Shown: positions 41,481-64,000, counted from the stretch's first letter. The stretch is 64,000 nt of DNA from Iphione sp. A-MEVVRFRX5 (GCA_976226885.1 OZ320316.1:107818001-107882000); one strand, 5' to 3'. Notes: generated by a model not told the origin, from the letters alone. A program made the numbers and translations.

Positions 41481-42330
41481 GAACCAGTAGGAGACAAGAA
41501 AGATTTTTTGTAGTTTTAGAACTTAAGATAAATTTTTACATTTTTGCATCTTTTCTTAACCTTATGCTGTCCGCCGTAGAAGGCTCGCATGAAGGGCGGT
41601 GCATGGGGTGCTTCCTTCTTTTCCTAAGAAATGCGTATATGAATGGGTGTGAAAGTGTTGAATAGGTATTCATTGGTCAGAGTACATTCCAAATTGTGTA
41701 TGAGAGTATTTTATTAAAGGCTAATGATGGAAATAAAGATATACCGATTTGATGAATGACACAAATTCGTTAAAGATTTTATATAAAAAACCATGTTGTC
41801 TGCGGAAAAAGCTTGAAATCATCTCAAAATACTTACCAAAAGTGGCATATTGTTATGAACGAATTGTAGCAGGAATGGTTGTGAACACGTATGTATTTCA
41901 GTTGTAATTGTAAGCATACGATTTATGGAGAAAGCAGCATTTAACGAAGGGGTACTTTTTTCATGAATGAAACACCAGGTGGCAACAGTTGTTAGGCGCT
42001 ATCCTCATGTATGCGTGGACACGCTCACGTCCACACAGGCGTGGACATCGCAATGTCCACGCAAATGGATTTGATCAGAGCTATCCTCATGTACGCATAT
42101 TATACGTCCACGCGAGCGGGGGCGTATTGCCGATTGGACATGTAGCGGGATGTACGCTTCATTCTGCGTGGACATTCGGGGGAACTAGGTCAACTCACAT
42201 CACATGACCATGCATTCTCGAGTGGTTGACCCGCTTTCATGGCTTCCGTCAACTTTGCTTGGACATACGTGTGACCGATCCGCTGTATTTGTCCAACCAT
42301 TTTCGAGCTTGGACATAGGAACGTCCAATC

Positions 42331-42537
42331 ATGCCGTCAAAGAAAGGTACAAACCCATTGACACGTTGCGCTGATGCCGATGTGGATCTTTTCATCGCTG
42401 CCGTCCAGGTCCGACCGGTTTTATATGATGCGAGCAGAGCTGATCACAAGGATATCATAAAAGTTAGACAGGCCTGGCTTGGTGTCATTAACTCCATGTC
42501 GATGGAGGGACTTGAAGGTTGGTTTGCATGGACATAG
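42331..42537 (+). pseudogene. MADF domain first exon within the Harbinger element
   Basis: LFIAAVQVRPVLYDASRADHKDIIKVRQAW matches the MADF N-terminal pattern. Confidence 0.7.
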
Positions 42538-43669
42538 CAATGTCCGATCACGAAATAACATGTTGTTGTTATTCATATTTTAGTCTTTTTCTCAGTACTT
42601 GCATTTTCACCTTCTAACCACTCAAATAGCTTATCCTGTGCTTTTGGGGGTCAGAAGGTATCACAACAATGTTTTTTATGCTGATGTGTGGAAATAATGA
42701 GCCTCTGTTTTATTTTTTTTTGAGTTAGGTATCACTGCACTGTTTTTTATATGTATGTATTTTTTTTGTGTATATGTATTTATTTATTGCAAAGAATAGA
42801 CTTATTGCTTGCCAATTTTTTACCTTATATTTTCCTGTGCATACTGTTTCTTGTACACTTTGTAAATGATTTATTTTGCTGGATGAATAATATCTTAATG
42901 CAATCAGTGTAGTGAGACAGGTAGCCATCTTGTCTCAATTTGAAAAAGGCGGGAAACTCACACAGGCAGCAGGCAGACTCAGAGGAGGAGTGGATAAGGA
43001 GGACATTTTTGTTTTGTTTCACTAAAGTCAAGTAAGTATATATTCAATCTTGCATTTATGTTATATTTTAACCTATGTACTTGTAGTACATACTGATGTA
43101 CATTTGGAATTGTTTTTCATTATTTATGTCTTGCATTTTGGCAAATATTTCCTCTGCTAGGTTTCATCAATGGCAAGGATGGTTTAGTCACTTGACAGTG
43201 AGGCAGTTGTTATATGTCTTTTCCTGATGTTGTTGAATACATGTGTTTTTGATTATTTCACTCTGATGTACTTGCCAGCTGTTTTGCATATATTAACATT
43301 AGCTGAAGTTTTTCTTTAGTAGTATATATTTGCCATTTTTTGTATGTATGTGATTTTCTGGTTGGACATGTACATGGTAATGTAATTGTATGATAAAGTT
43401 ACACATATGTCGGTGTATGTTTCTGTTTATAGTAAATATCTCACCTGAGGTGTAAATTAGAGTGTTTATGTAATTTTTTTTGTTTAACTTTAATACACCA
43501 GGTGCTTGTCATGTTTATAGTTAGCAATGAGATATTGAATGTTTTTGTTCATGTTAAATTGGTCAATGTGTTTTAAGGAAACATGTAGGAAGCATATAAT
43601 GGTGTATGTTATAGTGAGAGATATATTTACTGCTGTGTGTGCATAGGAGAAATACAGCAAACCTATAGC

Positions 43670-44083
43670 AGGTGTTGTGTTATGTACCTAGCAACCAACT
43701 ACTTTTGCAGATAGGTTTAAGTTGGTTTTTTTTTTCCCATGGTAGAGTAGCATCAGTGGCATTGTCTGGCCTAGCTGTACTGGTAGGCCTACTGCTGTGT
43801 GCGCATAGGAGAAATACATATGTCAGGGTTTGGCATGTTAAAAGACACCTACTTTTTTTTTTTTTTTCCAAATAATTGTGTGTTGTTTGGTTTTTTTTGT
43901 GTGTGATCAATCTGTACTGCTTGGTCACTCAGTGTGATATACATATTTGCATACAGCTAACCTATACCAGTTGTTGTGTTATGTACATAGCAACCAACTA
44001 CTTTTGCAGATAGGTTTAAGTTTTTTTTTTCTCATGGTAGAGTAGCATCAGTGGCATTGTCTGGCCTAGCTGTACTGGTAGGC
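43670..44083 (+). repeat. Internal direct duplication of about 110 bp (about 43670-43785 and 43970-44083)
   Basis: Both copies read GTTGTGTTATGTAC…TTTTGCAGATAGGTTTAAG…CATGGTAGAGTAGCATCAGTGGCATTGTCTGGCCTAGCTGTACTGGTAGGC. Confidence 0.85.
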
Positions 44084-45499
44084 TGGTATTTGGAAGTAGG
44101 TTGCATGTAAGGGTATGTTGTGTTTGTTTTCTTCCAGTTGTAGCTATGAAGGCTATGCTGTAGTAATGGAGACCTTCTATTCACTGTGCTATAATATTCT
44201 TTTTAGGATGAAACGATTTGGTATTAGCCCAAATGCTCCAAAGTATAATGCAAAGCGCGCGAAGGCCTCCAGGGACGAGGAAAACACAGAAGACCCGGTC
44301 AGGGCCCGTGCCAGGCGATCCTTGGATCGCCTGGAAAGGCGTCGTTTGTAGAAGATCGGTGAGTGTTTGTCAATGTCCTTACAAGTTACTCCACTTGACT
44401 ACAGACAAAAAATGGTAGGTTGGAAGGGGGCATTATGGCATATGAGTGCGTTCAGAACAATTGCAATACACTGACTCCAAACTAAATGTCGCAGAGTACC
44501 AACTTAGAACTAATAGAGATGGTTAAAGAATATACTGAATTTACATCTGACAAGACATTAGGCAACCTATCATAATTTTGAAGAATAAACTAGTGTTCTG
44601 GTATTGTTTGTGATTTTTTATATATGACCTAATACAGGAATGATGCCTATTTTCTATAATCCAACATTAAAAAACATTTAATGTATTTCAGCTAAACGTG
44701 AATGTCCAGCCACTGTAAATATTTTTTCTGACTGGACATGTTACAAGATGTTGGAGACATAAAATCCTTGTTTTCTTTTGATCAGACAGTTCTATGTGCA
44801 AAATAAAAAATATTTTGGCTGATTGGACATGCTAAAGACCAAGGTAAACATTTCTAATTATTATTTGGACATGTCAGACATCATTATTCACTGTCAATGG
44901 GACACATGGGTGTTTGTTTACAACTGACAGAGGATGGGTACATCTAGAAATGGCAGTTTATATTCTATCAGACAGTACTATGTCCACGCAAAAAAATATT
45001 TTGTCTGATTGGACATGCTACAGTCCAAACTAAACATTTCTGATCAGTCTCCATTAATTACATGCCTATATATGCATGAATACTTACTTAAGATACGATG
45101 TTGTTAAAATCAGTGGTGATCGGACGCCATCTTGTGCCAGCCACATCCGGTTTGGACATGGGCGTGTCCACGCGTCAACAGGCGTGTCAACGCATACGTA
45201 TCCCCACGCCTCCTGGAGTGTATTTGTGCGTGGACACGCCCACGCCCGCGCGGACGTGGGCGTGTCCACGCGTACATGAGGATAGCGCCTTAATGACGAT
45301 GTAATCCATCCAGTGCACTCAAGTATTACGGATTAAATTACTATTCAAAAGGGTGTTTTTTTTAAACTAATATAAACATAGGAGTGGGACATCAAAATGT
45401 TAACACATTGTTCTCGAGGATGATGGAACAAGAAACTGTAATAAATAATAATGATTGCTATGTGTTAGGGAATGACACGTCATTCATGAATCTTAACGT

Positions 45500-46217
45500 T
45501 GGAGGAAGCTTGTCACATCGCCCGGGTCACATTGTAACTCTTGCTGAGATCAAACCAGTGTAAAGGCATCTAGAATGGAAAATCTCATCAGAGCTTTTGA
45601 AGAAGAAGGGTAAGTCAGTTGCTTTTGAGTTTGTATGCTTACAGAATGTTTACCATAGATTTATTTGTCAATTACAGCGAAAGTGGTGATATGTCACGCA
45701 ACACATGGCATTCAACCTTACGTCATGCAGTGTTGTTGTACTACATATCATGATCTGCTAATGTCATCGTTGTATTGAAATAGTTCTTGCTCACTGTTTG
45801 TAAAGCCCACTATTCATAATTGACACAATAGTCTTGTTCCTTGCAGTCTTACTGCTCCAGAAGGCCTTATAAGGTTGATTCAAACATCTAAGACGAGAAG
45901 GAGCATGTATCATGCACTGTGGGCCGCCTGCAAGGTATACAGCAGTTAACAATGAGCTCAATTGTCATGAAGTTGTAATAAGCTGTCTTTGGCTATACTG
46001 ATATATTACATACCACCTTCATATGAATGCAATATTTGCTTAATCTAACAGTCTGTCTTTATATTAGAACATGTGTAGTAAAAATCTGACTACATACTTT
46101 CAGTTTGGTGCCAATCTGAGTGGACACAAGAGGACATATGCATTCCCAATTGAAATAAGGGATGCATTCAGGGAGCAATTCCCTGAAATTTCTCCAGCAT
46201 CGTACGATGAACAGTAC
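45500..46217 (+). pseudogene. Possible P2X7-intracellular-domain-like multi-exon remnant, interrupted by gypsy 2
   Basis: The exon …YFQFGANLSGHKRTYAFPIEIRDAFREQFPE…QY continues as EGRPD after 57377. The resemblance is loose. Confidence 0.25.
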
Positions 46218-47120
46218 TGTAATGTTGTCTGTGGCACCACAGCCACTTGTACTGTACTTGGTGAACTCTAGAATTAACGCTGACTGTGGCCTCGCAGTCG
46301 TATGTAGTGGTAGACACATGTACTGTACTTGGGGAACGCTAGAACGGACGTTGACTGTGGCACTGCAGTCGTATACAGTAGTAGATACATGTACTGTACT
46401 TGGTGAACTCTAGAATTAATGTTGACTGTGGCACCGCAGTCGTATGTAGTAGTAGATACATGTACTGTACTTGGCGAACTCTAGAATTAATGTTGACTGT
46501 GGCACCGCAGTCGTATGTAGTAGTAGATGCATGTACTGTACTTGGTGAACTCTAGGAACAATCTCGGCTGCGGCACCACAGCCAGCCAGGGTAACTATGT
46601 CGTAGTAATTTAGAAAAATGGTCATGGCCTGTGGCATCACAGGCAAGTTGTATGGCCCTGAGCCCTGGATGCCCAGGCATCTGTAACTTCGTATCTGATT
46701 GCTCTGAGATGATTGGTAGAGAGTAAGGCACACACCACATGTTGTAACAGTTTTATTCCATGAATGATACATCGTATGGATCACATGACCAGGAGTTTGA
46801 CTATAAATATGGGCCCTGTGTGGCCAATAAAACAGTTTGCACTTGGAACTCACTAGTGGACCTTGTTGATTGGGGATGTAACAAACCCACTTGGATTACC
46901 TAGGGTTGACACTTGGATGTAACCGCACTGGGACTACAGTGAAGTAACTGAGACAGGATAGCACTTATCAATAGTTGGATTCACCAAGTGGGAAATTCAA
47001 CAGGGGAATTATCCTGGAGTTAGTAACTGGACATAGCCTCACTGGAATTACAGTGGAGTAACTAAGGGAGCTAGCATTTAGTTGGATTACACCAAGTGGA
47101 GGAGTTAACCAAACATTACA
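46218..47120 (+). repeat. 5' LTR of gypsy 2 (903 bp)
   Basis: TGTAATG…CATTACA. TATAAA at 46802 and AATAAA at 46826. I saw only 3 substitutions relative to the 3' LTR by eye. Confidence 0.98.
46248..46555 (+). repeat. 71-bp tandem array (4 full copies + 1 partial) in LTR U3; also at 56505-56812
   Basis: Units start at 46248, 46319, 46390, 46461 and 46532 (TGTACTGTACTTGGTGAACTCTAG…). Confidence 0.95.
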
Positions 47121-47121
47121 C

Positions 47122-47139
47122 TGGTGGCAGCGGTGGGAT
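47122..47139 (+). promoter_or_regulatory. Primer-binding site for tRNA-Leu
   Basis: TGGTGGCAGCGGTGGGAT lies 1 nt after the LTR. It is complementary to the …ATCCCACCGCTGCCA-CCA end of tRNA-Leu. Confidence 0.9.
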
Positions 47140-47152: not shown

Positions 47153-47992
47153 ATGGCAACTCAGTACGTGGCAGTGGATGAGGAAGTGCAAATTCGGGTT
47201 CCCAGCCCAGCACATGCGGGCGAGGAAGAGGAAGAAGGTGAGAAGTTTGAACTAGCCCCTGAGGAACCCCTGAAGATGAACGCCATGAAGCCTGAATGCT
47301 TCGATGGGAAGACCGTGGATTGGGACAGTTGGATAGGACAATTCACAGAGTGGGCGGACGCTTGCAAGTGGAGTGAGAACACCCGCTGTTCTGCCCTGAC
47401 GCTTTCGCTCACTGGCCCAGCGCGTATGTATTATGGAGATTTACCACCGGAGGACAAGCGGGATTATGGATCCCGTGTGACGGCGCTTGAGCGACGTTTT
47501 GGCAGGCGATGTGACCGGGTGGTGGCCATGCAGAAGCTCTCTAGCATCCGCAGGCAGAAGGACGAGGATGTCCGGGACCTGGCTGACCGGGTGAGGCGTC
47601 TGGTAAGGAGTGCCTACCCCGACGTGTCTGGGGAGACTCGGGAACTGGCCGCCGTGGCTGCCTTTCAGCGATCGTTGGTCGACTCCCTCCACCTCAAATG
47701 CCTGGAGGCGAAGTGTACCACGTTGGACGCGGCAGTACAGGTAGTGGAGACTCAGGAACGATTCGTCACTAAGAGGGTACAGGTGGTACAGGCCCCGTCA
47801 ACCCCAGCGTGGACAAAGCCTATGGAAGAGCTCACTAAGGAACTTGCCAAGATCCGAGAGGAGATGCAAGCTCGAGAGGAAGCAAGGAACAAGAGGCCGC
47901 GCTACACTAAATGTTTCCAATGTGGACAAGAGGGCCATTTCCGGCGTGATTGCCCTGAGTTACAGGGAAACGGACCTCAGTCGACCAATTAG
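47153..47992 (+). CDS. gag: gag of gypsy 2
   Basis: ATG in AAGATGG context. Contains FDGKTVDW…QFTEWA, RQKDEDV and the knuckle CFQCGQEGHFRRDC. Confidence 0.93.
   Translation: MATQYVAVDEEVQIRVPSPAHAGEEEEEGEKFELAPEEPLKMNAMKPECFDGKTVDWDSWIGQFTEWADACKWSENTRCSALTLSLTGPARMYYGDLPPEDKRDYGSRVTALERRFGRRCDRVVAMQKLSSIRRQKDEDVRDLADRVRRLVRSAYPDVSGETRELAAVAAFQRSLVDSLHLKCLEAKCTTLDAAVQVVETQERFVTKRVQVVQAPSTPAWTKPMEELTKELAKIREEMQAREEARNKRPRYTKCFQCGQEGHFRRDCPELQGNGPQSTN
47965..47971 (+). promoter_or_regulatory. -1 ribosomal frameshift heptamer G GGA AAC
   Basis: The heptamer is correctly phased in the gag frame, and pol is in the -1 frame. Confidence 0.75.
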
Positions 47993-48033
47993 GCCAGGAT
48001 GGTACGACTGGGATAGCTTTAACGGGGACTACA

Positions 48034-51000
48034 ATGGAACCAGGTCAGGGACCACGACTGAAGGTAAGCCTTGATGGAAGATCGTTAGAACTGTTGATCG
48101 ATACTGATGCCGAGGTATCCATTGTTAACCCCCGTGTGGTCCCTGGCCTGGAGGAGAGGGGTTCACTGACGTGTATCACTGGGGCGGGAGGGCATGTTAT
48201 CCCTACTTTGGGACACCGCACCTGCAAATTAGAAATAACGGGCAAGAGTTTTCAACACCATTTCCTAGTGGCCGAAGTAGAAGAAGATGGCATCCTAGGT
48301 AGTGACTTTCTGTGCCAACATAGGGCGGTGATTGATTTAGCCAAACAAGAGATAGCCCTGAAAAATGGCGTCCCTAGATGCCGCCGGGTGGTGAAACGGG
48401 AGGTGGAGATCCGAGTGGCTCATGATGTGACTCTGCCACCTGGGGAGGGGGTTGCTGTGCTAGTGAACTACAATGGGGGGGCACCCCTGATGATTGAAGG
48501 GCTGCTGGATTCACAGTGGAATAACGGGGTGATTGGAATGAGATGCCTGGTAGAAGCCACCCTGCCCATGTGGAACACGACCGAATTGGAAATATTCCTG
48601 AAACAGGGAACCCAGGTGGCCGTGGGGGTCCCCGCCCGTCCCTGGGACGAAACGTCAGTGACTCCCCAGAAGAGTGTGTGTGCCATAAGAAGGGCAGTGG
48701 CTGACGTGATACAGGAGTTGGTGGGGTCCACCACGAAGACCCTTACCCCGGACCAGCAGGGACGTTTGAGGTGGTTGCTCAGGAAACACAGTCTTGCCTT
48801 TGCCCGGGACCGGGGTGACCTAGGGTGCACAGATGTAGTACAACATCGCATCTACACCGAAGATCCACACCCTATCAAGCAGCCTCCGCGGCGCATGTCC
48901 TCGCAAAAAGACAAGAGGAATGGAAACTGGTGAATGAAATGAAAAACCAGGGAGTGATTGTCGAGAGTAACAGCCCGTGGTCCAGCCCGGTAGTGATGGT
49001 CAGAAAAAAGGATGGGACGACTCGGTTCTGCGTCGACTATAGGAAGCTAAACGAGAAGACGAGGGTTGATGCCTACCCACTACCAAGGATCGACGACTCA
49101 TTGAGTACCTTGTCGGGGGCTAAATATTTCTGCTCCCTGGACTTGGCATCCGGATACTGGCAGGTCCAAATGCACCCAGAAGATCGGGAAAAGACGGCAT
49201 TCTCCACGTCCATAGGGCTATACGAGTTTACCGTCATGCCATTTGGGTTGATCAATGCACCAGCAACGTTCGAGCGCCTGATGGACACAGTGTTACGTGG
49301 CTTGACATGGGAACAATGCCTAGTGTACCTAGATGATATACTGGTGTTCGGAAGGACCTTCCAGGAAACCCTGGCCCGCTTGGATCGGGTGTTGACACGG
49401 CTCTCGGCGGCAGGACTGAAGCTGAAACCGTCAAAATGTCAGCTGTTCCTGCAAGAAATAGGTTTCTTAGGACATATCGTTTCACCTAAAGGGGTGGCTA
49501 CGGATCCCAGCAAGACGAAGAACATTGAGGAATGGCCAACTCCAACCTGCACGACAGAGGTACGTGCCTTTCTAGGCCTCTGTTCGTATTACCGGCGTTA
49601 CGTGCCACACTTTGCGAATGTGGCAGCCCCTCTGAACCAGCTAACCAGTGCCAAGACGCCTTTCACATGGGGGAAGTCGGAAGAAAAGGCTTTTCAGGAG
49701 CTGAAGTCAGCCCTCGCTACCAGCCCGATCCTGGGGTACCCACGACCTGAAGGACGCTATTTCCTAGACACGGATGCCAGCAATGTGGGGTTGGGGGCCG
49801 TGCTCGCCCAATGGCAGGAGGGACGAGAGGTGGTACTGGCGTACTATAGCCGCAGTCTGAGCGAACCTGAGCGGCGGTATTGTGTGATGCGTAGGGAGCT
49901 GCTCGCGGTGGTAGCGGCCCTGAAACATTTCCACTTCTACCTGTATGGACAAGAAGTCACTGTGCGTACTGATAACGGAGCTGTAAGCTGGCTTCGTCGG
50001 ATCAAGGATCCGGAGGGGCAACTGGCACGCTGGCTGGAACGGGTAGGGCAGTACAATATTCACTTGGAGCACCGAGCTGGCCGATTGAATGCCAATGCGG
50101 ATGCCCTCTCCCGCCAACCCTGTCGGCAGTGTAAACAGGAACACCTACTTGAAGAGGGGGTAACCCAGAAGGTGAGGGCGGTAACCCGCAGCCAGGCAGT
50201 GGGGACCCAACATCCAGAACTGAGAACGGCTCAACTCCAGGACGAGTGTGTAGGGCCGATCCTTAAAGCCCTGGAACTGGACCCTCAACAACCCCCCTGG
50301 GAGTGGGTGGCCCCATTGTCAGCTGCGACTAAGAGCCTCTGGAGACAGTGGAGCCGACTCACCTTGACGGATGGTCTTCTGCAGCGTAGATGGACTGGCC
50401 TCGGAGGGGACCCCTCTCGGCTGCAGGTGGTCCTACCAGCCGTACTCCGTGAAAAGGCCTTCAAGGAAGTACACGCGGGGCAAACCGGGGCGCACCTGGC
50501 CGCCGAGCGAACCACTTACCTGGTATCGTTGGCTTACTATTGGCCAGGGATGAGAGAAGACACCGCAACCTGGTGCAAGAGCTGCCACTGCGCCCTGTTG
50601 AACCAGAACCCACTTCGTCCCCAAGTGCCACTCAAACCTTATTTGTCAGGGGAGCCTATGGAGCGATGGTCCATGGATGTGGCGGGGCCTCTGCCGTTGA
50701 CTGAACGAGGGAACCGCTATATCTTAATGGTGGGCGACCACTTCACCAAGTGGCTTGAGGCATTCCCGCTACCAGACCAAAAGGCTCCTCAGGTTGCTCG
50801 GATTTTGGCGGAAGAGGTAATCGCCCGTTATGGCTGCTTCCATGAACTACACAGCGACCAAGGAACTAACTTCTGCAGCGAGATCATCACAGCCCTCTGC
50901 GACTACCTTGACATTAAGAAGACCAGAACCACCCCCCGCCATCCACAGAGCGACGGTTTCATCGAACGAAGTTTTCGCACACTTGGAAAAATGATCAAGG

Positions 51001-51593
51001 CACACTGCTTTGAGAGTCGGGATGAGTGGGACACCGCACTTCCTTTTCTGATGATGGCTTACCACGCCTCACCCCAGGCTAGCACTGGTTACACTCCGAA
51101 TTACCTCATGTTCGGACGGGAGATAACCCTTCCAGTGCATGCGGTGGATGGTCTCCCTCAAAAGACTCCTACTACGGAGGACTTACCTGATCCCGTGGGA
51201 GGAATGGTTCGGCGTCTCCAAGCAGCGTACAGTAGAGTCCGGGAGAAGTTGGGCACGGCGGCCCGAGCCCAGGCCCGGGCGTACGATCGGAGGGTGAGGG
51301 GGGACGCCTTGGAGGCAGGGGCGGCGGTATGGCTCCATGAAGCCCAACCCCCAAAAGGAAAGAGCCCCAAAACCCATTTCTCTTGGTCGGGGCCGTGGCT
51401 AGTCATACGGGCCCTGGATGATGAGCGAATGGTGGTACAACGCTCGAAACAGGCAAGGCCGAAAGTCGTACATAGGAACCGTTTACGGCTGTACCGGGGG
51501 GATCAATTACCCCGGTGGATCGTCTCCTGGCGCAGGAAAAGCGAGGGCCCCGCCCCCCCCGCGAGGGGTGAGACCTCTTCCCGGAAGGCCTAA
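48034..51593 (+). pseudogene. pol: pol of gypsy 2 (PR-RT-RH-IN); 1-nt frameshift near 48900 and protease motif DTD
   Basis: Contains LLIDTDAEVSIV, RFCVDYRKLN, YLDD, LDTDAS, HHCC-like region, SDQGTNF…DGFIER and WSGPW. Confidence 0.95.
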
Positions 51594-52415
51594 TAAGGAG
51601 ATGGGGGGCGAGAAAGCCCGCTGGGACCCAGCGTCCCGCAGACTCGGAAAGAATGAAGAGTCGGGAAGTAGGATGATAAACGTCCTGGCGATGCTCGAAA
51701 ATGTTCATGTAGGGTGACGGCCGCCCGGAGCCGAAAGGGCTCAGAATGGCCGCTATGGGTGCGACAGGCGACCCGGAAGCCATCGGCTCGAAACGACCTG
51801 TGAAGAGGGGAGGCCCCCTGGTAGCACTCGAAAAGTCCGTGGGGCAAAAAGGGAACGCCCGGAAGCACATTGCGCACTCGAAATTCCCTGGAGGAGGATG
51901 GACATCCTGGGGTTTTGACCCGGCCCAGAAAGTCCAGGTAGGAGGACGGACCTCCTGGAGATGCACGAAAGGCCTGAGGAGGGAGGATGAACACCCTGGA
52001 GCACGCGAAACATTTATGAAGCGGGTAGGGAGTGAACGTCCCGGAGACGGCGGAGCTCGAAACGATTCGGTACGGATTGGCGGATGGGAGACGGTGAGAC
52101 CCCAAATAGGACAGGGTTACTTTACCCAAGATGCTGTCCTTGTCCTCTCGACGAAGGGGGGTAGTTACACGGCCAAGATGCGGTCCACTTTCCTCTGGAG
52201 GGGCCCAGTTGCGGTCCGTTTCCTCTAGTAGACCGGTCGAGGGGAAGCAGAGGCTGCCTTTAGACACCTTTAAGAGAGAGAAAGACTTAAGAACCTTACA
52301 GAAAGGAAAACCACAGGGAGACGACTAACAGGTAACTGAAATTTATTTAACAACTCTTAATGCTGCAACAGGATCTATTTACATATTCACAATATTTACA
52401 TATTTAGTTGGACAG

Positions 52416-53286
52416 TTAGTCGGACAGCACGATCGGGAAGGACGCGCAGTCCCCCCGGCAGAGGCCTGGGTAACATTGGCAGAGGATGTCAGTTGGCATT
52501 TCCTCCAGCAGGGCCCGATCTAGTAGGGGGGTCCCCCTGTCGGGAGTGTCATTGATGGATGTGGTGCTGGAGGAGGAGGGAGAAGCCGGAAACCACGGCG
52601 GAGAGTCCAACGACAAGGAAGGGGAAGGAGGAGCAGACGGCAGCGGCGAGAACAGGTCGCTTAGGTCCTGGTCCGACCCCCAAGGGTCGAGACGGCTGGA
52701 CGTCAGCGTCGAGGCAGTCCCGTCTGTGCCCGCGTAGCTGTCGGTGGAGGAGAGAGAGGCACGATCATCTATGCCTAGGGCCCAGGCTGGGATATCACGA
52801 GGGGCCGAAGGACTGCAGTCGGCCCATGGAACGGCGGGAGAGGTGGCCAGACTAGTGTAGCTCGAATCCGGAGTGAGAGACGCTAGTGTCTCCTCCACGT
52901 CCCGAAGCCCCAAGTCAGGGGAGACGGCCTCATTCCGATCGACACACCACCATGGATCGTGTATGGTGGGAAGAGGCGGCTCTGACGGTCCCGCAGGATG
53001 GACCACCACGTCCAGAACGTGATCCGGGCCGAAGAGGCGGACATAGCCAGGCGACGCGATGTACAGCGGCGTGTCCAAGACGTTGTAGAGACCGTACACG
53101 CGTAAAGAGGGCCCTGGGGTGGTGACGTCTATGTGCCTATAGTACGCATCAGGAACGGCGTACCTGCAAAACCAAGAGGCACAGGTAAAAGAAAACGGCG
53201 TACCTGCAAAACCAAGAGGCACAGGTAAAAGGAAAAAAATTTGTGCCCACGGTGCACATCAGGAATGGCATCCACAGCACAGTACA

Positions 53287-53322
<36 letters not shown>

Positions 53323-53356
53323 TTACACCACTCAAGGACACTTACCTTCTAACCAT
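52416..53356 (-). CDS. Spliced antisense accessory gene of gypsy 2 (about 252 aa, acidic and Ser/Pro-rich)
   Basis: ATG at 53356, donor AG|GTAAGT at 53346/53345 and acceptor TTTTGCAG|G at 53164/53163 join in frame to the open frame ending at 52416. Minus-strand AATAAA at about 52342-52347. Confidence 0.6.
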
Positions 53357-53677
53357 CTGGATGGCAGCAAGGAGGACACACAGGCTGGAGATGAAGGGAT
53401 GCTTCACCCACCAGAGTCTGACCTTAACCTATGAAGAGAAAAGTTGAACAGAACCCTAACAACAACAAACTGAATTCCAGAACCATAAAATACAAAATGA
53501 CTGAAGCTGGAGACAATAGGGAACTTACTGGTTCTCAGTGGGAGGATAGGCCATGAGCCAGCTGGGTAGGTGATAGCTGCCACTTTCCATGATGTGGATG
53601 CTTTGAAGTCAGTTGAGGAACTAACGCCGAGGCCCGGATAGCGAGGGCTCTTATAACCACACGAAGCGCGAAAGCGA

Positions 53678-54171
53678 CTGTGGCGCCACAGGCAAGAGAG
53701 GGGAACCGAACTACGCAGTACGCCGAGCGGCTGTGGCCCCACAGGCACATATTGCCGAAAGTCTGTTGGCTGCTAAAATCCGACGAAAATTTGCGGAAAC
53801 GGCTTGAAAGGTTCCCACTTCGTAAAGAAAAGCATTAAATTCCACCCTGTGGCCCCACAGCGATAGAAAAGAAAAAAAACAGTGACTGCGGAACCGCAGC
53901 CAAACGTAAACTTCCGCCCAGCTTCAAAATAAGGCTCTTCAGCTCGGGAGTGCGGGAGAAAGAGAGGAGGATATGAAGCTGGACCTTCTGGGCCAGTAAG
54001 AACAACGACCAGGGCAAAGAAGTCGAAGGGAACCGCACCGCAGAAGCTTCGACGCTAGCTCGACGGCTGTGGTGCCACAGGGAGTGGAGGACGCATACAA
54101 GGTGAATAAACTGACTGCGGACCCACAGCTGTACCGAGTGGAGGGCATCAGAAACGCTTGTGGTTCCGCAG
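53678..54171. promoter_or_regulatory. Cluster of palindromic CTGYGGNNCCRCAG sites between the divergent accessory genes
   Basis: Perfect copies at 53678, 53731, 53847, 53886, 54067 and 54115, and a near-perfect copy at 54158. Minus-strand TTATAA at 53651-53656. Confidence 0.8.
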
Positions 54172-54187
54172 CCGCCGAGCGCCGACA

Positions 54188-55558
54188 ATGCCGCGCAAGA
54201 AGGTAAGTGGCAAACGGTGGCCCAGTAAGCTGACACCAGACTTACAGCTTACCCCAGAGGCCAAGATCTGTACCAGGTGTGTTGTACCACGTCCATTCAA
54301 GAATCAGGATTCATATGATCGTCATGTACATGATAAGCATGAGGGGGGGCGGGGCCGTGATATCATGTGCCTTTGGTGTTCGGTGGTGATAAACGATGAA
54401 CACTACTGGGTTACCCACCAGCGACGCTACCACCCCTGGGCCGTGGACTTCGGTTTAACCGAGAAACCTTACCGATGTCTCTACGATGTGGCGAGTGGGG
54501 GGCCTCGGATCGTCGCTGCCCCAGATGACGAACTGACCACTATTCTTATGCGTGCCCGCCGGGCCCGAGAGGAGGGATGGGTGCTTACTCAGCAAGATGT
54601 GGAGCACATGTTGGCCGAGTGCCCGCAACGGGCGAACCCCCCGCCACTGCCCCGTCAGTGCAGGATCGGGGGCCCCGTTGGGGAGGGGTCGGGGGCTGCC
54701 TCCTCCGCACAGGCGGCACCGGTTTCCCCACCCTGTGAGGCCCCCGCCGTGGAACCGGCGATTGGAGAGGTTGCGGCAACACCTGAGGAACGACGGCCGG
54801 CCACTCCTGGGTCCGACACGGCCTGTACGCCATCGCGGGTGCCAACTCAAGGGAAAGCCTGGCCCGCTGGCATCCGAGACGAGCCTTCACTCCTGGGGGA
54901 GGGCCATCTGGCCCGGCTGGCCGCCTATACCCTGTGGCCGCGGCGGCGACCGCATGTGACCGGACGCGTGCAGGACAGCCTCTCTGGCCTCTTCCCTCCA
55001 CATGTGGCCACTATGCGGAGCCAACTCGTGCCAGGCCCGGTCCGTCTACCACCTGTCATCACCTGGCCTCCCCCGCACTGGGACACACTCTCTCCGGTCC
55101 AGCGGTTGATGACATCATTATCTTTGGCCTGGGTGCTCCAGTTAGCGGAAGGAGGTGGGCCACTCCCCCCTACTGTGTTGGAACCACTGCGACAGAGGCC
55201 CGCCCTTCTCCTGCCCGGGATGGCACTCCCTCAGCCGCAGGACTGGGGAAACGTAGACGATATACTCGCCCGGAACAATCATACCGTTACTGTCGCAGAA
55301 AACCTCATTAAGGATCTCCAGAGGGAGGGAGGACAAGATAGGGGCCCTAGGGCCACCAACGCAGTTCGGTGGTTACGTGAAAGAGACGACGCGCGGATGC
55401 AGCAGGACCAGCAGTCCCCTACCCTGTATGACGTCTGTCATCATTCAGCCCCCAGGCAACTGTTGCTGGGGACACAAGAAGTGTGGAGACGCTGCCTCAA
55501 GGGGGCGGATGGCCGACCGCACCCTGCAGCGGAGAAAGGGAGGAAGGACGGGGAGTAA
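54188..55558 (+). CDS. Accessory ORF of gypsy 2 with two C2H2-type zinc fingers (456 aa)
   Basis: Basic N-terminus PRKK…KR; fingers CTRC…FKNQDSYDRHVHDKH and CLWC…HYWVTHQRRYH; Pro/Ala-rich linker; conserved-looking C-terminal region. Confidence 0.75.
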   Translation: MPRKKVSGKRWPSKLTPDLQLTPEAKICTRCVVPRPFKNQDSYDRHVHDKHEGGRGRDIMCLWCSVVINDEHYWVTHQRRYHPWAVDFGLTEKPYRCLYDVASGGPRIVAAPDDELTTILMRARRAREEGWVLTQQDVEHMLAECPQRANPPPLPRQCRIGGPVGEGSGAASSAQAAPVSPPCEAPAVEPAIGEVAATPEERRPATPGSDTACTPSRVPTQGKAWPAGIRDEPSLLGEGHLARLAAYTLWPRRRPHVTGRVQDSLSGLFPPHVATMRSQLVPGPVRLPPVITWPPPHWDTLSPVQRLMTSLSLAWVLQLAEGGGPLPPTVLEPLRQRPALLLPGMALPQPQDWGNVDDILARNNHTVTVAENLIKDLQREGGQDRGPRATNAVRWLRERDDARMQQDQQSPTLYDVCHHSAPRQLLLGTQEVWRRCLKGADGRPHPAAEKGRKDGE

Positions 55559-56474
55559 GGTCCCGTCCAAGCCTGGAGGCTGTGCCACCGCATGTGACTA
55601 CCTCCCTTGGAGGTTTCTTTAGTCTAGCTGTTGGGGGGGGGTTCGTTAAACAAGAGTGTTACTAAAAAGTAGGAAAGGGGACCCTACCCCCCATAAAAAC
55701 CTTACTGTTTGTAATTGTTACCTGTGATGCTAAGGTTTGGAGAGTTGTGGGAAGTGACTGAAGGGGACTGTACCCCACAAAAAAAAGGAAAGGTTATACA
55801 CTCAGGTTCTCTGCCTCAGGTGAAGTATTTATAATGTTTGTTATAATGTGATGTTGATCTGTAATGATTGTTACCCATGTTACTTGCCAAATGTTACCCC
55901 CTATGGGGCCGTGGAGTGTTATCAAAGAAATGACTGGAGGGGACTGTACCCCACAAAAAAAAAAACGGGGTTCAGGTTTGTCTTATTAGAAGTTGATGAC
56001 TACATCTTTATCTCCTATGGAGACTTTACCAGATTCAGCATACATTCCAGATAATCGATTACTAAAAGGGGGGTGTTCCTGTATGTACGTGCATATTCCA
56101 GACTGTTACCGTTGATGACCAGTGAATATTGATCACTACCTCCTAGGGAGGCTTTACCAGAGTAAGCATTTACCCCAGACTGTTCCTGTATGTATGTGCA
56201 TATTCCAGACTGTTACCGTTGATGACTAGTGAGTATCGATCATTACCTCCTATGGAGGCTTTCCCAGAGTTACTAGTTGTTATCCAAGAATTGTTGAGAG
56301 TGTTATTAATGATCATCACCTCCTATGGAGGCTTTGCCAGAGTTACCAGTAGTTATCCAAGAATTGTTAGGACAACTGTTAACCTCCCTAGGGAGATTTA
56401 TGCTAGCTCAGGTTGTGCCTCCCAGGACAACCGGTTTTCACTTCCCCCGGCGGACTGTTTTAAGGTGGGGAGAG

Positions 56475-57377
56475 TGTAATGTTGTCTGTGGCACCACAGC
56501 CACTTGTACTGTACTTGGTGAACTCTAGAATTAACGCTGACTGTGGCCTCGCAGTCGTATGTAGTGGTAGACACATGTACTGTACTTGGGGAACGCTAGA
56601 ACGGACGTTGACTGTGGCACTGCAGTCGTATACAGTAGTAGATACATGTACTGTACTTGGTGAACTCTAGAATTAATGTTGACTGTGGCACCGCAGTCGT
56701 ATGTAGTAGTAGATACATGTACTGTACTTGGCGAACTCTAGAATTAATGTTGACTGTGGCACCGCAGTCGTATGTAGTAGTAGATGCATGTACTGTACTT
56801 GGTGAACTCTAGGAACGATCTCGGCTGCGGCACCACAGCCAGCCAGGGTAACTATGTCGTAGTAATTTAGAAAAATGGTCATGGCCTGTGGCACCACAGG
56901 CAAGTTGTATGGCCCTGAGCCCTGGATGCCCAGGCATCTGTAACTTCGTATCTGATTGCTCTGAGATGATTGGTAGAGAGTAAGGCACACACCACATGTT
57001 GTAACAGTTTTATTCCATGAATGATACATCGTATGGATCACATGACCAGGAGTTTGACTATAAATATGGGCCCTGTGTGGCCAATAAAACAGTTTGCACT
57101 TGGAACTCACTAGTGGACCTTGTTGATTGGGGATGTAACAAACCCACTTGGATTACCTAGGGTTGACACTTGGATGTAACTGCACTGGGACTACAGTGAA
57201 GTAACTGAGACAGGATAGCACTTATCAATAGTTGGATTCACCAAGTGGGAAATTCAACAGGGGAATTATCCTGGAGTTAGTAACTGGACATAGCCTCACT
57301 GGAATTACAGTGGAGTAACTAAGGGAGCTAGCATTTAGTTGGATTACACCAAGTGGAGGAGTTAACCAAACATTACA
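56475..57377 (+). repeat. 3' LTR of gypsy 2 (903 bp)
   Basis: Copy of 46218-47120, preceded by the PPT AAGGTGGGGAGAG (56462-56474). Confidence 0.98.
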
Positions 57378-60238
57378 GTACGAAGGTCGGCCAGACATAT
57401 GTATAAATCATTTAGAAATTCACTTCATGTCCCCTATGTACGGTAGCATCTAACAACAATTATAAAGTGAAATATTTCCAGGAAGAGATGTAGTGTCTCA
57501 TCTTAATCTCAACATCTACATGAACCAAACATGTGTGCAATTTGCAAGCAAATGAAATGTATGCTTCATTATCGGGGCAATGTGACTTGGGAGTATGTAC
57601 ATATTTTTAATCATGTAAACCTCAAGCAAATATTGATGTACAATAGGCTATCTCAAAATTTCTACTTTGTAACATCTACCAATCTCTGTGTAACCCTACT
57701 CATCATCTTGAACCTCAAGACCAGGTACAGAGGAATAATGTATGTATATGACAGTGAGTTGCCCATCGAGACAAATTACGTGCTTCCTCTTTCCCAGGTG
57801 TATTATGTATCCATGCATGAACTGTGCATGTTAACCTATCCCAAGAGAAAGAAGTAATGATGCACAGTCATGGAGCAACCTGTGGCTGAAATAAAGTGGA
57901 TGTGTGGCCCAACACTTAGTTTATGTTCATCAAACGATCTGAATTAGTGTTTCAAAATGTTGTAATCAGTTATGAGTTCTTTGGTAATTAAATTTGTAAC
58001 TCAATGTGCCCTTGTGTTGTTCTTCACTTCTTAGGTTTTTTTCTTGTACCTGTACTGATCAAACCGAGGGGAGTGCCAGGTTGGGAAGCAATTGCGCTTA
58101 CTGTTTAGGCACAGATGGACCTGACATTGCTTTACCATGAAGGATATAGCATACGTGACAGTTGCGTCGGAGAGGGCTGTACTGGGGATCGTGTGGCCCG
58201 GAAAGATCCATGCTCTTTTTCTTCCTGATAGCTGGAAGGTAAATCGGTGGGCCTTCGTCATCCTGGATTCTCGCTAGTTGCCTTACCAGCTCCTCTCTGA
58301 AATCGATGTGTGTATAACCTGAAAGGTGTAAGGGCAGGTCTTGATGCAGACAGCAGTGAACTGTGATATTAGAAGCTTGATTAAATCTGTGCACTTAATT
58401 GACATGTTTCATATTTCTCATGTGTAAAATTCAGATGGAAGAAGAGTACTGACCAGCACAATGAACAAGGCCCAGTACCTCGGGGTGAGCAGCCTTCCAT
58501 TGCTTGAATAGAAGAAAACTATAACGTGGAAAAAAGCGTTTTCCACCACTTGGTTGATTTCTGAAGGCATGTGTATGACTGTATCATCTGGTCGGCAAGG
58601 TCGACGCCGCCCATGAATCGGTTGTATGAGTGAATACATCTTGGGATTCTGGTGAGCTTGTGTTGATAGGATTCGTCTTTAGATTTCCCGTTCCTGATGA
58701 CAAGAACATGGCTGTCTCCTCTGTGCATCATACTGATCATATTAACGATACGTTTGTCAAACCACTGCAAAACCAAGACATCTTCTTGAAGAACATAACA
58801 CATGTCCCCTGCCTTCACTTTCTTGGGCCATTCTTTGCCTTTCAGGACCTGTAAACACAGTTAGGTCATCTTCAACACTATGGATTGAAAGTTGACGAAA
58901 CCGTCTTTAGTCTAACTCGATGTAGTGCTATTCATAAACAAGGCCAAATATCAATGCTGAACTAATTGCATATTCTATGGTAAAACTTACAATTGGGAAG
59001 CCTTGACGCCAAGGCTGCATGGTGCCACACATCAGAGTGCCAACCTCCAACAAGTATTTGGCCAGCTAGAATGATGAGAAGAAGTTGTCACAAAATACCA
59101 TGTACCCCTGATGTAGGTATGGTTTCATCAAAGATGTGATGACATCGAATCCCAATCCATGAGAGCTTCGCTCACAACTGCGGTCAATATACACACTGAA
59201 AATTGTCATGAGAAGACATGTTAGCCATTATGTATTGGATGTATTTCAAAGCCACAAGCTGAATAACTCAACGTTATAAATTTTTCATTCCCATTATTTT
59301 AGCCCATTGCAAACTACATACTGTGATGGCTCATTTATATTCTCACTCACCTGAAATTGAATGTGTAGCCTGTCTCTGCATCGCAGAGACACCACAGTAA
59401 CCAAACCTCGTATGTTTGCTTGGCATGTATTGTTGGATAGGTGATCGTTGTTTTGAACGCACCATTCTCTCATCAATGGAAACTGTCTGCCTGGGTTGGA
59501 AATACTTCTTGTTGGCAGCACTCAGGTGATCGAGTAGGGGTCGGATTTTAGACAATTTATCATTTTCATCCTCCTCCCCAGGCTTTGAGACATGCAACAT
59601 GGCGTTAATGGCTTTAAATCTATAATATAGATTAAATCAAAATAATATATATTAACAAGTTTCAAAACAAACATTCACATGACAGGAACATATTCAAACC
59701 TCAAAACATCTACCATAAATTAATACACATGTACGCCCTTGCATTCGAATCATCATATTCTGAGTTTATCAGTCATAGCATACCTGTTCCTTGACAAGAA
59801 CCGTCGTGACCATCCCCCTGGATAGAGAGTGGCCTGTGACCAGTTTCTCTCTAAGTCACGCCTGCCATCTAATCCATGAAATATTATAAGAGCAATTAAT
59901 TGCTTCATTACCTGTAGGGAGGCTTCGTTCCAAGCTCTGTCTCTTCGATTGCCATATGATGGCTTATCAAGGATATGGAGCCACCCATATAAGTTTGTGT
60001 TGTCCACAACAGCCTGTAAAATGAATGGGTGCCTTTCTTACAACCATGCAGGATGGATTAGAATGCAAGATGAGCCAATGGTAATATTACAGTAAAATGT
60101 AATCCTGCGACATCAAAGTGTTTCTTAAGGATATGCATCATTACCTGCAATACATCTGGCATGAAGAGCCCAAAGAAGTCAATGGCTTTGGTGAATTTGT
60201 TTTTTCCAGTACGTATGATTCGATCCACCAGATGGGGT

Positions 60239-60376
60239 CAGGGCAATTAAGGGCGTTTGTCAAGAATGGTCCCCTGCCATAGTCACTCTCACCTCGGGGC
60301 GGGACTTCGTCCCAGCCCCTCGGTGAGAGTGACTCTGTCAGGGGACCATTCTTTCCAAACGCCCTTAATTGCCCTG
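60239..60376. repeat. 138-nt near-perfect palindrome/hairpin
   Basis: 60239-60293 pairs with 60322-60376 (4 mismatches). Inner stem GGGGC-GGGAC/GTCCC-A-GCCCC with a TTC loop. Confidence 0.95.
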
Positions 60377-60816
60377 TTCTAAAACTCTAACGGTGAAAGT
60401 CTGTATTGAAACTAAGACAAAGCGAGATATTCTGTCAATGGACAGAGTTACTCTTAACAAACGTTTTTCATTGGATATTGATTTTCATTCATTCATTCGA
60501 AAAGTAAACAAACAAAATGGCGGATGATATGTCGATTCAAAAAGAAAAAAAGACTAAACGTTAAATATATGCCATTAAAAGATAATTAAATAACTTCGGC
60601 AATATAAAAAGGAGCAGCAGGTCATTCTGAGAACAATATACCGTAGATAAACCAATATATGAGGAAAAATCAATTTTACATGACAAGCAGACGAAGACAT
60701 GAACGAACGAAATGGAAATGAATGCTATTGGCTAAAATCGATCACATGTCATCGATAATCAATAATGATTGGTGGAAACATTTGTTGACAAGCTGAAACG
60801 TCAGCAGGGCATCACG

Positions 60817-62643
60817 ATGGGGCGTTTTCGCCAAGGTGAATATTGCAAATTCGAGGGTAATGTCTACAAAGTCTTACTCAAGTTTCAACCAACTCATTAC
60901 CCATACTTTCTGTATCAAATACAGAGCATTGCAACTGGTGATATTCGCAATGTAGGCAGTCACCTCCTCGAAAAAATGGATTGGCAGCCGCAGACAGATT
61001 TCCAGATTGAATCATTTGATATTCCGACAGAAGTCTACGAAATATCATTCAAATCTGACAATGAAGAAATCGAAGCTACGCAGGCCTATGGTATTCCTGA
61101 TGACAACATCCAAGCCCGTGATGTTGAACCAACTCAAGCATACGAGGAAAGAAGAAGGAGCCCACCAAAGGATCCTCGTTTCAAGCGTCCGTCACCAGAG
61201 GAATTGGAAGCTGTGAAAAAGGCAAGAAACTCGAAAAAAAAAGAACAGCAAACAAAATGGGCGACAAAGTTATTCAGAGGTATTAAAAAAAATAATTTAG
61301 CTGAAACACATATCAGTTTTCGTTAATAAGACATAGTACCGGTACATATCTTACATTATTCTTAAAATTGCCTTGGTGTATTTCGTACAGGGTGGCTTGC
61401 TGCAGTGAACTACGATGCGGACTTCGAGAACGAAGCACCATCCGTTTTAGCTCAACGCCTTGAAGAATTCTACGCCAGCATCAAAACAGCAGAAAATAAC
61501 GACTACAGTCGCAGTGGGTTAAAAAACCTCCGTGCTGGGATTCAAAGGCACTTAGTATCGCCTCCATTCAACCGTAACATCAACATCGTAGCTGACCGTG
61601 AGTTCAGAACCGCCAATTTAGCGTATGAAGGACGATTAGCTAAGTTGCGTAAAGATGGAAATGACAAGGCTCAGCATAAGTTATTGATTGAGAAAGAGGA
61701 TGTCGAGAAATTATATTCCACTGTTTTTGTTCACACGCCAATAGGCTTACAACGTCAAGTTTTCTTCAACGTCGTCCTCCATTTTGGACGACGTGGAAGA
61801 GAAGGTTTACGTGAGTTAACTAAAAATTCGTTTGTTGTCTCTAAAGATTCTCAGGGTACTGAATTCGTGGCTATGTCAGCTGTAGAATGTGAGAAAACTA
61901 GGCAGGGAGTGAAGGAGGAGGATGACATCACAAACAAACGCATGTATGCTAATGCTTCCCATCCAGACAGGTGCCCTGTAAGGGCCTTCAAAGAATATGT
62001 AACGAGGTTGCACCCCGACAATATGTACTTTTTTCAGCGACCAAAAAGGAATTATAATCCGCACGAGATGATTTGGTTTGACAACATGGTGTTGGGGTGC
62101 AACACGCTCTATAACATGATGAAGGTTATGTCTAAAGAGGCATCCTTAAGCAAAATATATACAAACCACTGCATAAGGCGGACGGTTGTAACTGTTCTGG
62201 ATCATGTGGGATATTCAAATGCAAACATCCAATCTGTAACGGGACACAAAAGCGAAAAAAGTCTTGTTCCTTACCTCGGGGGTCCTTCTACCACGTGCAG
62301 AAAAAACATGTCTAATCTGTTATCTGATTACGGCAACGAAAAAGCAGTACAGCGTTTGCCATCTTCAACGATTTCAAAACCATTGGAAGGTTGTTGTACA
62401 GGTGAAAAAAATGAACAGCATGTTGCAATCGAGATGGGGAATCCATCCACGCTTGATGTTTGTAATGATGAGGTGGTAGTTCAATCGAAAGAAATTGCTG
62501 AAGTCGCTTCAACTTTGTCACAAGAAAACGTTACCTTGACACAGGTTACTATGTCAAAGGAAGAAGTAGTTCCTGCAATGTTCTCAGGCAAAACGACCTT
62601 ACATAATTGCACAATTAATTTCAATTGTATTTCCAAGAAGTAA
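60817..62643 (+). CDS. Tyrosine recombinase (DUF3504/Crypton-like), 2 exons (60817-61279, 61391-62643), about 571 aa
   Basis: A GT-AG intron joins in frame (TKLFRG|WLAAVNY). Catalytic set: FGRRGRE (R), EKTRQG (K), NHCIRRT (HxxR), TGHKSEKSLVPY (H…Y). Confidence 0.88.
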
Positions 62644-64000
62644 TTCTGAGTTGATGTGCATGCCTTCCCGCTGTTTAATGCGTCATAAAAAAAAAATTAT
62701 CCGGTACCGTTTTTCTACCGAGAGTAACTGCATAACAATTGTTCTTGTATACACAAAACAGCTAAAACGAGGAATTTACAGAATATGTGTGATTGTTACA
62801 TTGAATAAAAACCTGTTCATGTTTAAATCAGAAAAAACTTGTTTTTTCATTAAGTCTCGTTCAAAAAAAACAGAGCGTGACTTCAGATATAAACAAGACG
62901 CCATATTGAAATGATATTTGCAAGCGGACGAAAAAAGTAAGCAGATAAGCTTAAAATTACATTGACTTAATGTTCAAACTCGAATTATTATTAATAAAAT
63001 AACCAAAATATGCTATGATACAACAGTTTTCGTTTTTAGAACCGCGATTAAGTGCGTTTGTCAAGAATGGTCCCCTGCCATAGTGGAACAGTGGCGGGTT
63101 TGAATTTCCTCATAGGTGGCTGCACATCAGGGTCGTCAAATGATGAAAATCGAGAAAATAATTTTATTGAAATGATCACCCATATTAAGATCTTTACTTC
63201 ATAGTATTAATCTAATCTTAAAATATAGCAAAAAACATGTATACAAGCTGTAAATCATAGAAATATTTATGGCATTGTGGGTATACACCGTCATGACGTT
63301 GCAAACGTCACACGCCGAGTGGCGTCATGCGCTTAGCAGACGACAACAGCTACAATAAGGTAAATAATGTACAATCAAGCTCATTCTCATCACAAATCTT
63401 CTTCCCCAATCGACAAAAAGTTCCTTTTTAACATTTCTGCTATTCTCAATTTTAATTTAGTGTTGTAACAGTTATTCACAACATTCAGAAAGATAAAATT
63501 GACCTACGCACCTGACGTTCTGCCATGAAGCTCCACTCTTGGAGCTATCACTCAACCCTTCGTCTCCAAATCATACAAATCCTTGGCTAATCCTCCTGAA
63601 ATCTCTTCATTCAGTGCATCCTCTTCATCCTCAGACATCCCTACACTTCCTATAGCATCTACTACATGTACATTGTAGCCTTTTGCAATTAATTCACGGG
63701 CCTGTAAGGCCGTGCTCCTCTGAGGACGAGACATGTTGGTGACAGAAACATACACAAACACAAGTGCGGGACTGTTGTACAGTTGAATCTCTATTTACGA
63801 CCACATTGATTTCCGACCATTGTCAATTTAAGACCACTTTAGTTGGGGCACAAAAATATGAATTTCTATACATCTGATACTCTATTGTGGGCGGAGTTAG
63901 CGGAGTAGCGGAGTTAGCGGAGTTTGAGGCGGAGTGTCTAGACTCCAGGCAGAGTTTTACAGTTCCTATAAATATCGCTTCAGGGCGGAGATCGTGGTCA

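Follow-up and report, generated by a model that had tools for sequence, protein, structure and literature searches.

The general view is that LTR retrotransposons leave their transcription to host factors, whereas a DNA-binding regulator encoded by the element itself is characteristic of complex retroviruses and of a few DNA transposons. A first-pass annotation of the DNA described here had likened it to both foamy virus Tas and HTLV Tax. HTLV Tax acts through host CREB and is not known to read a site of its own, and the HTLV analogy is therefore weak. In the foamy Tas circuit, as set out in the available part of PMC3798896, an internal promoter lies 3' of the structural genes beside the accessory genes, elements are found in both U3 and the internal promoter, the regulator is dimeric and its sites are virus-specific. 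The locus described here is alike on these points, with a predicted internal promoter, predicted response elements and a predicted dimeric regulator. Unlike the foamy system, it is a gypsy element without env, its candidate regulator is a C2H2 protein, and its best-formed internal promoter is antisense. Foamy response elements (TREs) are also little conserved in sequence according to the same partial source (PMC3798896), whereas here each promoter has seven near-identical palindromes. The Arabidopsis VANDAL/VANC system offers another parallel, with an accessory gene and a dense, family-specific short motif that lies in non-coding regions and is amplified by tandem repeats (PMC5735166, available part). 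VANDAL, unlike the present element, is a plant DNA transposon with a 9-bp motif in direct orientation, and there the link to methylation loss has been shown (PMC5735166, available part).

The element and its two palindrome arrays

The window, that is, the whole 64-kb stretch of DNA analysed, contains a young insertion of a Ty3/gypsy LTR retrotransposon (Table 1). It has LTRs, a primer-binding site, presumably of tRNA-Leu type, a polypurine tract and a target-site duplication (GTAC at 46214-46217 and 57378-57381), and gag is followed by the order PR-RT-RH-INT. Its pol groups with gypsy elements, both by database matches and in a quick tree. The closest database protein to pol has 54% identity, and the named matches are arthropod and bivalve elements, several of them called "transposon 412"; the label 412/mdg1-like is taken from these database names. 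In this copy pol is broken, changing frame near 48.8-48.9 kb, and its protease motif departs from the canonical form. A strong splice donor lies inside gag at 47238. A search of the element for env gave no env-like ORF and no Pfam match. Nine degenerate repeats ending in CGAAA or CGGAAA occupy 51645-52058, between the end of pol and an antisense poly(A) signal.

Table 1. Coordinates of the features of the element, counted from the first letter of the window
Feature	Position	Strand	Details
5' LTR	46218..47120	+	903 bp, TG...CA; 3 mismatches to 3' LTR in 903 bp
U3 array, 7 palindromes	46226..46645	.	46229, 46284, 46355, 46426, 46497, 46568, 46629
LTR core promoter	46802..46837	+	TATAAA 46802, AATAAA 46826, Inr-like CAGTT ~32 nt after TATA
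Primer-binding site	47122..47139	+	same sequence before gag in L002, L003
gag with CCHC knuckle	47153..47992	+	Pfam zf-CCHC E 5e-7
Protease, RT, RNase H, integrase	47959..51593	+	pol
Antisense gene, last coding exon	52416..53163	-	248 codons; AATAAA at 52347-52342 after stop
Antisense promoter and 5' exons	53346..53655	-	TATAAG 53655-53650, Inr TTAGTT 53624, ATG 53590
Internal array, 7 palindromes	53675..54174	.	unrelated flanks, spacing 39-181 nt
Candidate sense 5' exon	53973..54171	+	ATG 53973, donor 53996, weak acceptor 54171
ORF3	54188..55558	+	456 aa; length reached in 0/500 simulations
Polypurine tract	56462..56474	+	
3' LTR	56475..57377	+	same 7 sites, 56486-56899

Other mobile elements share the window. 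Three LINE-like elements at 8276-36637 have an ORF1 with a NADAR domain, one of them also a weak GDSL-like ORF. The stretch 41994-45290, with 51-bp terminal inverted repeats that are 90% alike and subterminal palindromes rich in GGACA/TGTCC, is probably a non-autonomous DNA transposon. A Crypton-like unit at 60243-63084 carries a tyrosine recombinase/DUF3504 ORF between 41-bp direct repeats. A further gypsy element has a 270-codon ORF 5' of gag on the minus strand (5009-5904), with a TATA at 5904 and an Inr-like TTAGTC at 5879; this ORF has no Pfam match and holds no copy of the palindrome.

The first-pass annotation had counted the palindrome CTGYGG-NN-CCRCAG six times perfectly and once nearly in the internal region, and seven times per LTR. 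These counts were reproduced. In the window there are 15 perfect copies, against a mean of 0.02 and a maximum of 1 in 100 dinucleotide shuffles, and 21 copies once a single mismatch is allowed, where the shuffles average 0.29 and never exceed 3. All 21 fall within this one element, seven in each of the two LTRs and seven at 53678-54171, and the rest of the window has none at the same tolerance. When spacers of 0-12 were scanned with the arms in the same orientation, spacer 2 accounted for 15 of 15 copies and no other spacer occurred. A scan of all 6-bp inverted dyads with spacers of 0-8 returned the palindrome as the best motif shared by LTR and internal region (7/7); the highest value was 1 when the internal region was shuffled 40 times, and 2 among 82 real 700-nt tiles. 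The symmetry extends to about 20 bp, YGN-CTGYGG-NN-CCRCAG-NCR; of the 14 internal half-sites, 13 have Y at -3 and 10 have G at -2 (P ~0.001 each). The Y/R letters of the two arms combine as T/A in six, T/G in five, C/A in two and C/G in one of 14 sites, and the letters of the spacer are free while its length is fixed at 2 bp. The array is real, highly non-random and operator-like. Because of the fixed spacer, the dyad symmetry and the independently varying arms, the palindrome is very probably a dimer-type site on double-stranded DNA, and the dimeric geometry first proposed from kept arms and varying spacer letters stands.

The two arrays do not weigh the same. Four sites in the 5' LTR and five in the 3' LTR are perfect, the remaining three and two having one mismatch, and six of the seven LTR copies lie in or derive from a 71-bp tandem unit and are therefore not independent. 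Within the four full units, mismatches per site are only slightly fewer in the arms (0.042) than outside them (0.064), and two of the four have a damaged arm. The internal array thus carries most of the evidence. Its sites at 53678, 53731, 53847, 53886, 54067 and 54115 are perfect and that at 54158 has one mismatch, so that 83 of 84 arm positions are kept. As the annotation had it, these copies lie outside the 71-bp unit; they have nothing in common with the LTR beyond the site itself, with alignments of at most 24 nt. Since their flanks are unrelated, the site itself must have been kept or gained seven times. Present seven times in U3 and seven times in the internal region, the site is a predicted response element; foamy-type circuits also have such elements in both places.

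Two genes around the internal array

The 4.9 kb between pol and the 3' LTR hold two head-to-head genes with the array between them; the first internal site lies 23 nt upstream of the antisense TATA, and the last ends 16 nt before the ORF3 ATG. The antisense TATA reported in the first pass appears as one part of a fuller predicted gene, together with an Inr, two GTAAGT donors (53528 and 53345), candidate acceptors (53429/53385/53357 and 53204/53164) and a poly(A) signal. The TATA-to-Inr distance is 33 nt, versus 32 nt in the LTR. The two GTAAG donors are the only ones on the minus strand in 52300-53760 and both stand at exon ends (P ~0.01). Of the six frames, the one read in the last exon scores highest for codons, and its ORF length was reached in 6 of 500 simulations; several splice choices leave an open frame of 252-286 aa. 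These features support a well-formed, spliced antisense gene with, by its anatomy, a predicted internal promoter. The predicted protein has a beta-rich N-terminal part and a long acidic tail rich in S, P and D (residues 96-225: 16 D, 27 S, 19 P, 15 L, 4 W, no K). No homologue or domain was found for it in database and Pfam searches, and tblastn against the gaps of six relatives gave nothing convincing (best E 0.013, low-complexity). Two details of the gene are recorded here as well: a 40-bp tandem duplication at 53154-53233 doubles its last splice acceptor, and a 31-nt A run at 53290-53320 forms a U tract in its second intron.

On the other side of the array, ORF3 encodes a basic N-terminus, two atypical C2H2 fingers (ligands C28/C31/H46/H51 and C61/C64/H77/H82), a P/A-rich linker and a predicted helical C-terminal part. 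It matches Pfam zf-C2H2_4 weakly (E 0.67), with the zinc ligands kept and the helix of finger 2 atypical. A protein search gave no match in 8000 scored candidates, and the sole match among 1.84 billion representatives, a repetitive Thr/Gly-rich protein, was rejected as spurious. The ESM Atlas returned weak C2H2 look-alikes only (0.82-0.85). Single-sequence AlphaFold models were unusable for both accessory proteins (pLDDT 38.5 for ORF3 and a low-confidence 41.6 for the antisense protein), and a homodimer prediction with ORF3 residues 20-140, run without an alignment, scored 0.00 and gave no usable answer. By its length (0 of 500 simulations) ORF3 is clearly coding, and it looks like a real gene of the recurrent ORF3 type described below. 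Its 3' UTR, and no other part of the window, has a second small palindrome, CTCC-N3-GGAG, five times, at 55602, 56012, 56140, 56247 and 56320 (and 56384). One change falls on both sides of the outer pair, and the motif may be an RNA triloop hairpin; we take 56384 to resemble a COE/EBF site.

The first-pass annotation had called the internal region a divergent promoter. The antisense half of that claim is supported by anatomy, through its TATA, Inr and donors, and the sense half finds no such support: neither TATA nor Inr is present on the sense strand before ORF3. A candidate sense 5' exon ends in an acceptor that coincides with the end of the seventh palindrome, and a splice to it from 53996 is in frame with ORF3. 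By chance the frames would agree one time in three, and only 10 of the 20 nt counted at the acceptor are pyrimidines. A polypyrimidine-AG acceptor stands 0-3 nt before the ORF3 ATG in six of nine relatives; L036 and L042 have none there and L041 is ambiguous. Given the missing sense TATA and Inr and the acceptors of the relatives, the divergent promoter is half shown, and ORF3 could instead be spliced from the LTR transcript. The lack of an acceptor in L036 and L042 hints, for those two loci, at an internal promoter.

ORF3-type genes and LTR words in related elements

Searching GTDB with pol, and keeping the best 80 of 205 confirmed stretches, yielded 78 related loci. They are contigs of eukaryotic gypsy elements that have ended up in bacterial bins. 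The annotation had proposed to scan related families for the motif; among these distant relatives (728 kb, again the best 80 of 205 stretches) the palindrome is absent as an array, with no perfect copy and two isolated one-mismatch copies. This absence is no refutation, because foamy TREs and VANC sites are also family-specific. A dyad array common to the LTR and the 700 nt before ORF3 was found in none of nine ORF3-bearing relatives with LTR sequence (best 1); the comparison used partial LTRs for L002, L003 and L030 and left out L066, whose slot was gag. An earlier set of LTR limits was rough, taking a non-LTR stretch for L041 and leaving L066, L072 and L011 out of the count. A shared-k-mer test of LTR against internal windows was dropped, as the window's own array reached only z ~2.

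The gene itself fared differently from the site. A C2H2 ORF follows pol in 13 of the 78 loci (best 80 of 205 stretches), many of which are too short to show the region after pol. Seven of the 13 built a profile and six were found with it; a 14th match, L026, lay outside its element. Seven zinc ligands are invariant across eight aligned ORF3 proteins, six of the eight match Pfam zf-C2H2, and the profile matches DNA-binding fingers, for example those of CTCF and TFIIIA. A two-finger C2H2 ORF3 is thus a recurrent feature of this gypsy lineage. With a profile built without the window protein, ORF3 ranks first among the frames of the window (E 0.019), and BLASTP of ORF3 against L030 is not significant (E 0.56). 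In a quick tree, which underlies all clades of relatives given here, L030 and L066 group with the window element in a clade of 9 rows (SH-aLRT 99); in both of these loci a two-finger ORF lies some 1 kb beyond pol.

Some features of these relatives are noted in their own right. L036-L043 are a family that has intact LTR pairs and an ORF3 with two, one or a degenerate finger. L030 has ten words of the ACGGAGT/GCGGAGT type in both orientations (732-1195, 1887, 1910), eight of them upstream of a TATA at 1288; its gap before ORF3 (7486-8622) has four antisense AATAAA and GACGT[CT] repeated eight times, and what may be a broken antisense ORF contains "DVVVNPG", resembling "DVVVHPA" in the window's antisense protein. 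In the LTR array of L003 (35-112) the window half-site CCRCAG occurs three times, probably derived from one tandem unit.

The fingers of some relatives can be compared with their LTRs. L002, L003 and L025 share a finger 2 of the form R-x-D-N-x-x-R and an R6 in finger 1. By the zinc-finger code, as we apply it, these fingers predict GAG-G, and the LTRs of the same three loci have tandem TGAGG arrays in one orientation, followed by CT, AG and TT, respectively. Ranked by clustering shared across the three LTRs, TGAGG comes first among 512 5-mers, with 9, 7 and 3 copies per 150 nt, and two other words tie with it on the minimum count. By TGAGG density L002 ranks first and L003 joint second among the 78 loci (best 80 of 205 stretches). 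Over the whole LTR, counted on fuller limits, GAGG is raised only in L003 (12 versus 6.0; L002, 17 versus 16.5; L025, 7 versus 5.0). The three loci form one clade and therefore make about one observation, and the agreement was noticed after the fact. Elsewhere the predicted word is not enriched in the LTR of L036 (6 versus 4.3), the 5' array of L030 (ACGGAGT) does not fit the L030 fingers in canonical order, and L006 has the same finger as the three loci at a locus without an LTR. We take the fit in L002, L003 and L025 as a modest sign that ORF3 may read its own LTR. For the window itself, finger 1 (N-1, D2, S3, R6) would by the same assumed code fit the half-site G-Y-x-G in three of four contacts, and finger 2 (D-1, H2, Y3, T6) is atypical and predicts nothing clear. 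The available part of PMC4330361 confirms Arg for G and no further part of the code, and describes one-to-one finger codes as context-dependent.

Candidate readers of the palindrome and described systems

We think it rather probable that the protein reading the palindrome is encoded by the element, and give an even chance to a reading in which the palindrome serves as an operator, specific to this family, for the two-finger protein that the element makes from ORF3. We infer that a protein binds the site, that it is ORF3, that ORF3 dimerises and that there is an internal sense start. An operator of about 20 bp would then be read as double-stranded DNA by a dimer, each ORF3 monomer sitting on one half-site of 6-9 bp, and the arrays in U3 and the internal region would let a single switch encoded by the element control both the genomic (gag-pol) promoter and that of the accessory genes. 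Low basal expression of the accessory genes would let the regulator build up, act on U3 and feed back on the internal region. At U3, activation or anti-silencing seems somewhat likelier, and the sites overlapping the ORF3 leader could repress ORF3 itself. The weak homology of the window ORF3 to its relatives, its atypical finger 2 and the absence of any relative with a shared dyad array argue against ORF3 as the reader. As for the complex-retrovirus-like circuit claimed at the outset, the site shared by U3 and internal region, the anatomy of the antisense promoter, the recurrence of ORF3 and the fit of finger residues to an LTR array in three relatives speak for it, and the divergent sense promoter is its weaker part.

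A host transcription factor, RUNX/CBF or another dimer, could bind instead, the copies having been gathered for a tissue or stress programme; we regard this as less probable, though a serious rival. RUNX cores occur in the LTR enhancer repeats of murine leukaemia virus. To our knowledge, no motif of COE, p53, NF-kB, NFI, RFX, CTCF, Zic or GCM fits the palindrome. The annotation had pointed to a RUNX half-site, and the TGYGG core is indeed present and a pair of inverted TGYGG cores, as in the GM-CSF enhancer, can be bound by a RUNX dimer (PMC2952845, available part). However, that dimer binds at 4-bp spacing with a preference for TGYGGT, and a site with 3-bp spacing bound one molecule (PMC2952845, available part), whereas here the spacing is 2 bp in 15 of 15 copies and conservation extends further outward. 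The full TGYGGT occurs in 7 of 14 sites and in only three of the seven internal ones, and neither the outer C, which never varies, nor the YG at -3/-2 belongs to the RUNX consensus given in the available text of PMC2952845. The motif does not recur in the window's remaining 53 kb or, as a perfect match, in the 728 kb of relatives, which come from other hosts. The RUNX alternative is thus weaker than had been claimed.

The antisense protein might itself be the element-encoded binder, a Tas-like beta domain with an acidic activation tail, alone or with ORF3. A positive feedback loop would call for an array immediately upstream of the antisense TATA, and that is where it lies; a shared dyad array is missing from relatives in which no antisense gene is clear; and an acidic composition rich in S, P and D, like that of its lysine-free tail, is typical of activation domains. 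With no homologue or domain in the databases searched, an N-terminal part that is not basic and a low-confidence structural model (pLDDT 42), this protein is an improbable reader. Still less probable is that the sites act in RNA or splicing, as tetraloop hairpins or YNCAG acceptor ends, or that the internal region serves only the antisense gene and ORF3 is spliced from the LTR transcript. The region does fold better than shuffles (z -3.2), every site ends in CAG, the last site stands where six relatives have their ORF3 acceptor, and the donor in gag is strong. But the folding score is explained by cross-pairing of the repeated palindromes, and C/A and T/G arm pairs are both present, so no single strand pairs at all sites. 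The sites also lie upstream of both TATA boxes, have no polypyrimidine tracts and match nothing in Rfam; an LTR-spliced ORF3 is quite possible, yet it would not explain the dyads. A neutral by-product, whether relics of repeat amplification or a captured U3 fragment, would suit the LTR, with its tandem-derived copies and arms not clearly better conserved than the unit. It is very improbable as a whole: the internal copies are irregularly spaced, have no flanks in common with each other or with the LTR, and keep their arms almost intact.

Reportedly, a 2026 preprint describes transposases as sequence-specific activators. If an ORF3 operator does exist here, a zinc-finger ORF3 with a matching operator would bring the logic of a self-encoded regulator to animal gypsy elements. 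The role of the extra ORFs between pol and the 3' LTR, a long-standing question, would become directly testable, with a site, a candidate protein and related protein-site pairs (L002, L003, L025) in hand. Zinc-finger factors and their sites would, moreover, have one more way to spread jointly through invertebrate genomes.

Singly, internal promoters, antisense accessory genes, varied ORF3s (PMC5408684, available part) and a Rev-like regulator are already known. Oikopleura Tor3b and Tor4b are likewise invertebrate gypsy-type elements with a third gene and an internal promoter after or within pol, but there the promoter drives env, and the available text of PMC4402516 describes no shared operator or regulator. 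As predicted here, the plant elements Grande (gene23), RIRE2 and Retand (aORFs), and also Boty, have an antisense gene that lies between pol and the 3' LTR and has a promoter of its own, and Drosophila micropia has an antisense RNA (PMC7264820, available part). The function of such antisense genes is not known and a regulatory role has been proposed; unlike here, neither a divergent zinc-finger gene nor an LTR/internal site is described in the accessible portion of that source, and the micropia RNA is non-coding (PMC7264820). CERV, encoded by Cer1 of C. elegans, shows that regulators like those of complex retroviruses do occur in gypsy-type elements of animals, but CERV is Rev-like, acting in RNA export, is made by splicing and is no DNA-binding factor (PMC10309623, available part). 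In the mostly open-access literature searched, no gypsy element is described as carrying a C2H2 ORF3 or as encoding its own DNA-binding regulator, and zinc-finger terms do not appear in the available text of PMC13524379, PMC8220671 or PMC6238403.

Taken together, the analysis puts the case for a putative self-encoded zinc-finger regulator on firmer ground than before. A wider picture is tentative and, in our estimate, unlikely to hold in full: an envelope-less animal gypsy lineage encoding its own sequence-specific C2H2 factor that co-evolves with LTR arrays, in which a dimeric operator here couples the LTR with an internal promoter that works in both directions, for the factor and for an antisense regulator, a foamy-like two-step circuit that would have evolved independently. 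With no env, a gypsy-type pol and accessory ORFs without a database homologue, the element stands apart from spumaretroviruses and other complex retroviruses. Its motif is, like that of VANC, family-specific, arrayed and carried in tandem repeats, and no Pfam family matches either accessory ORF. By analogy, the element may work like the foamy Tas circuit or VANC while being a member of neither.
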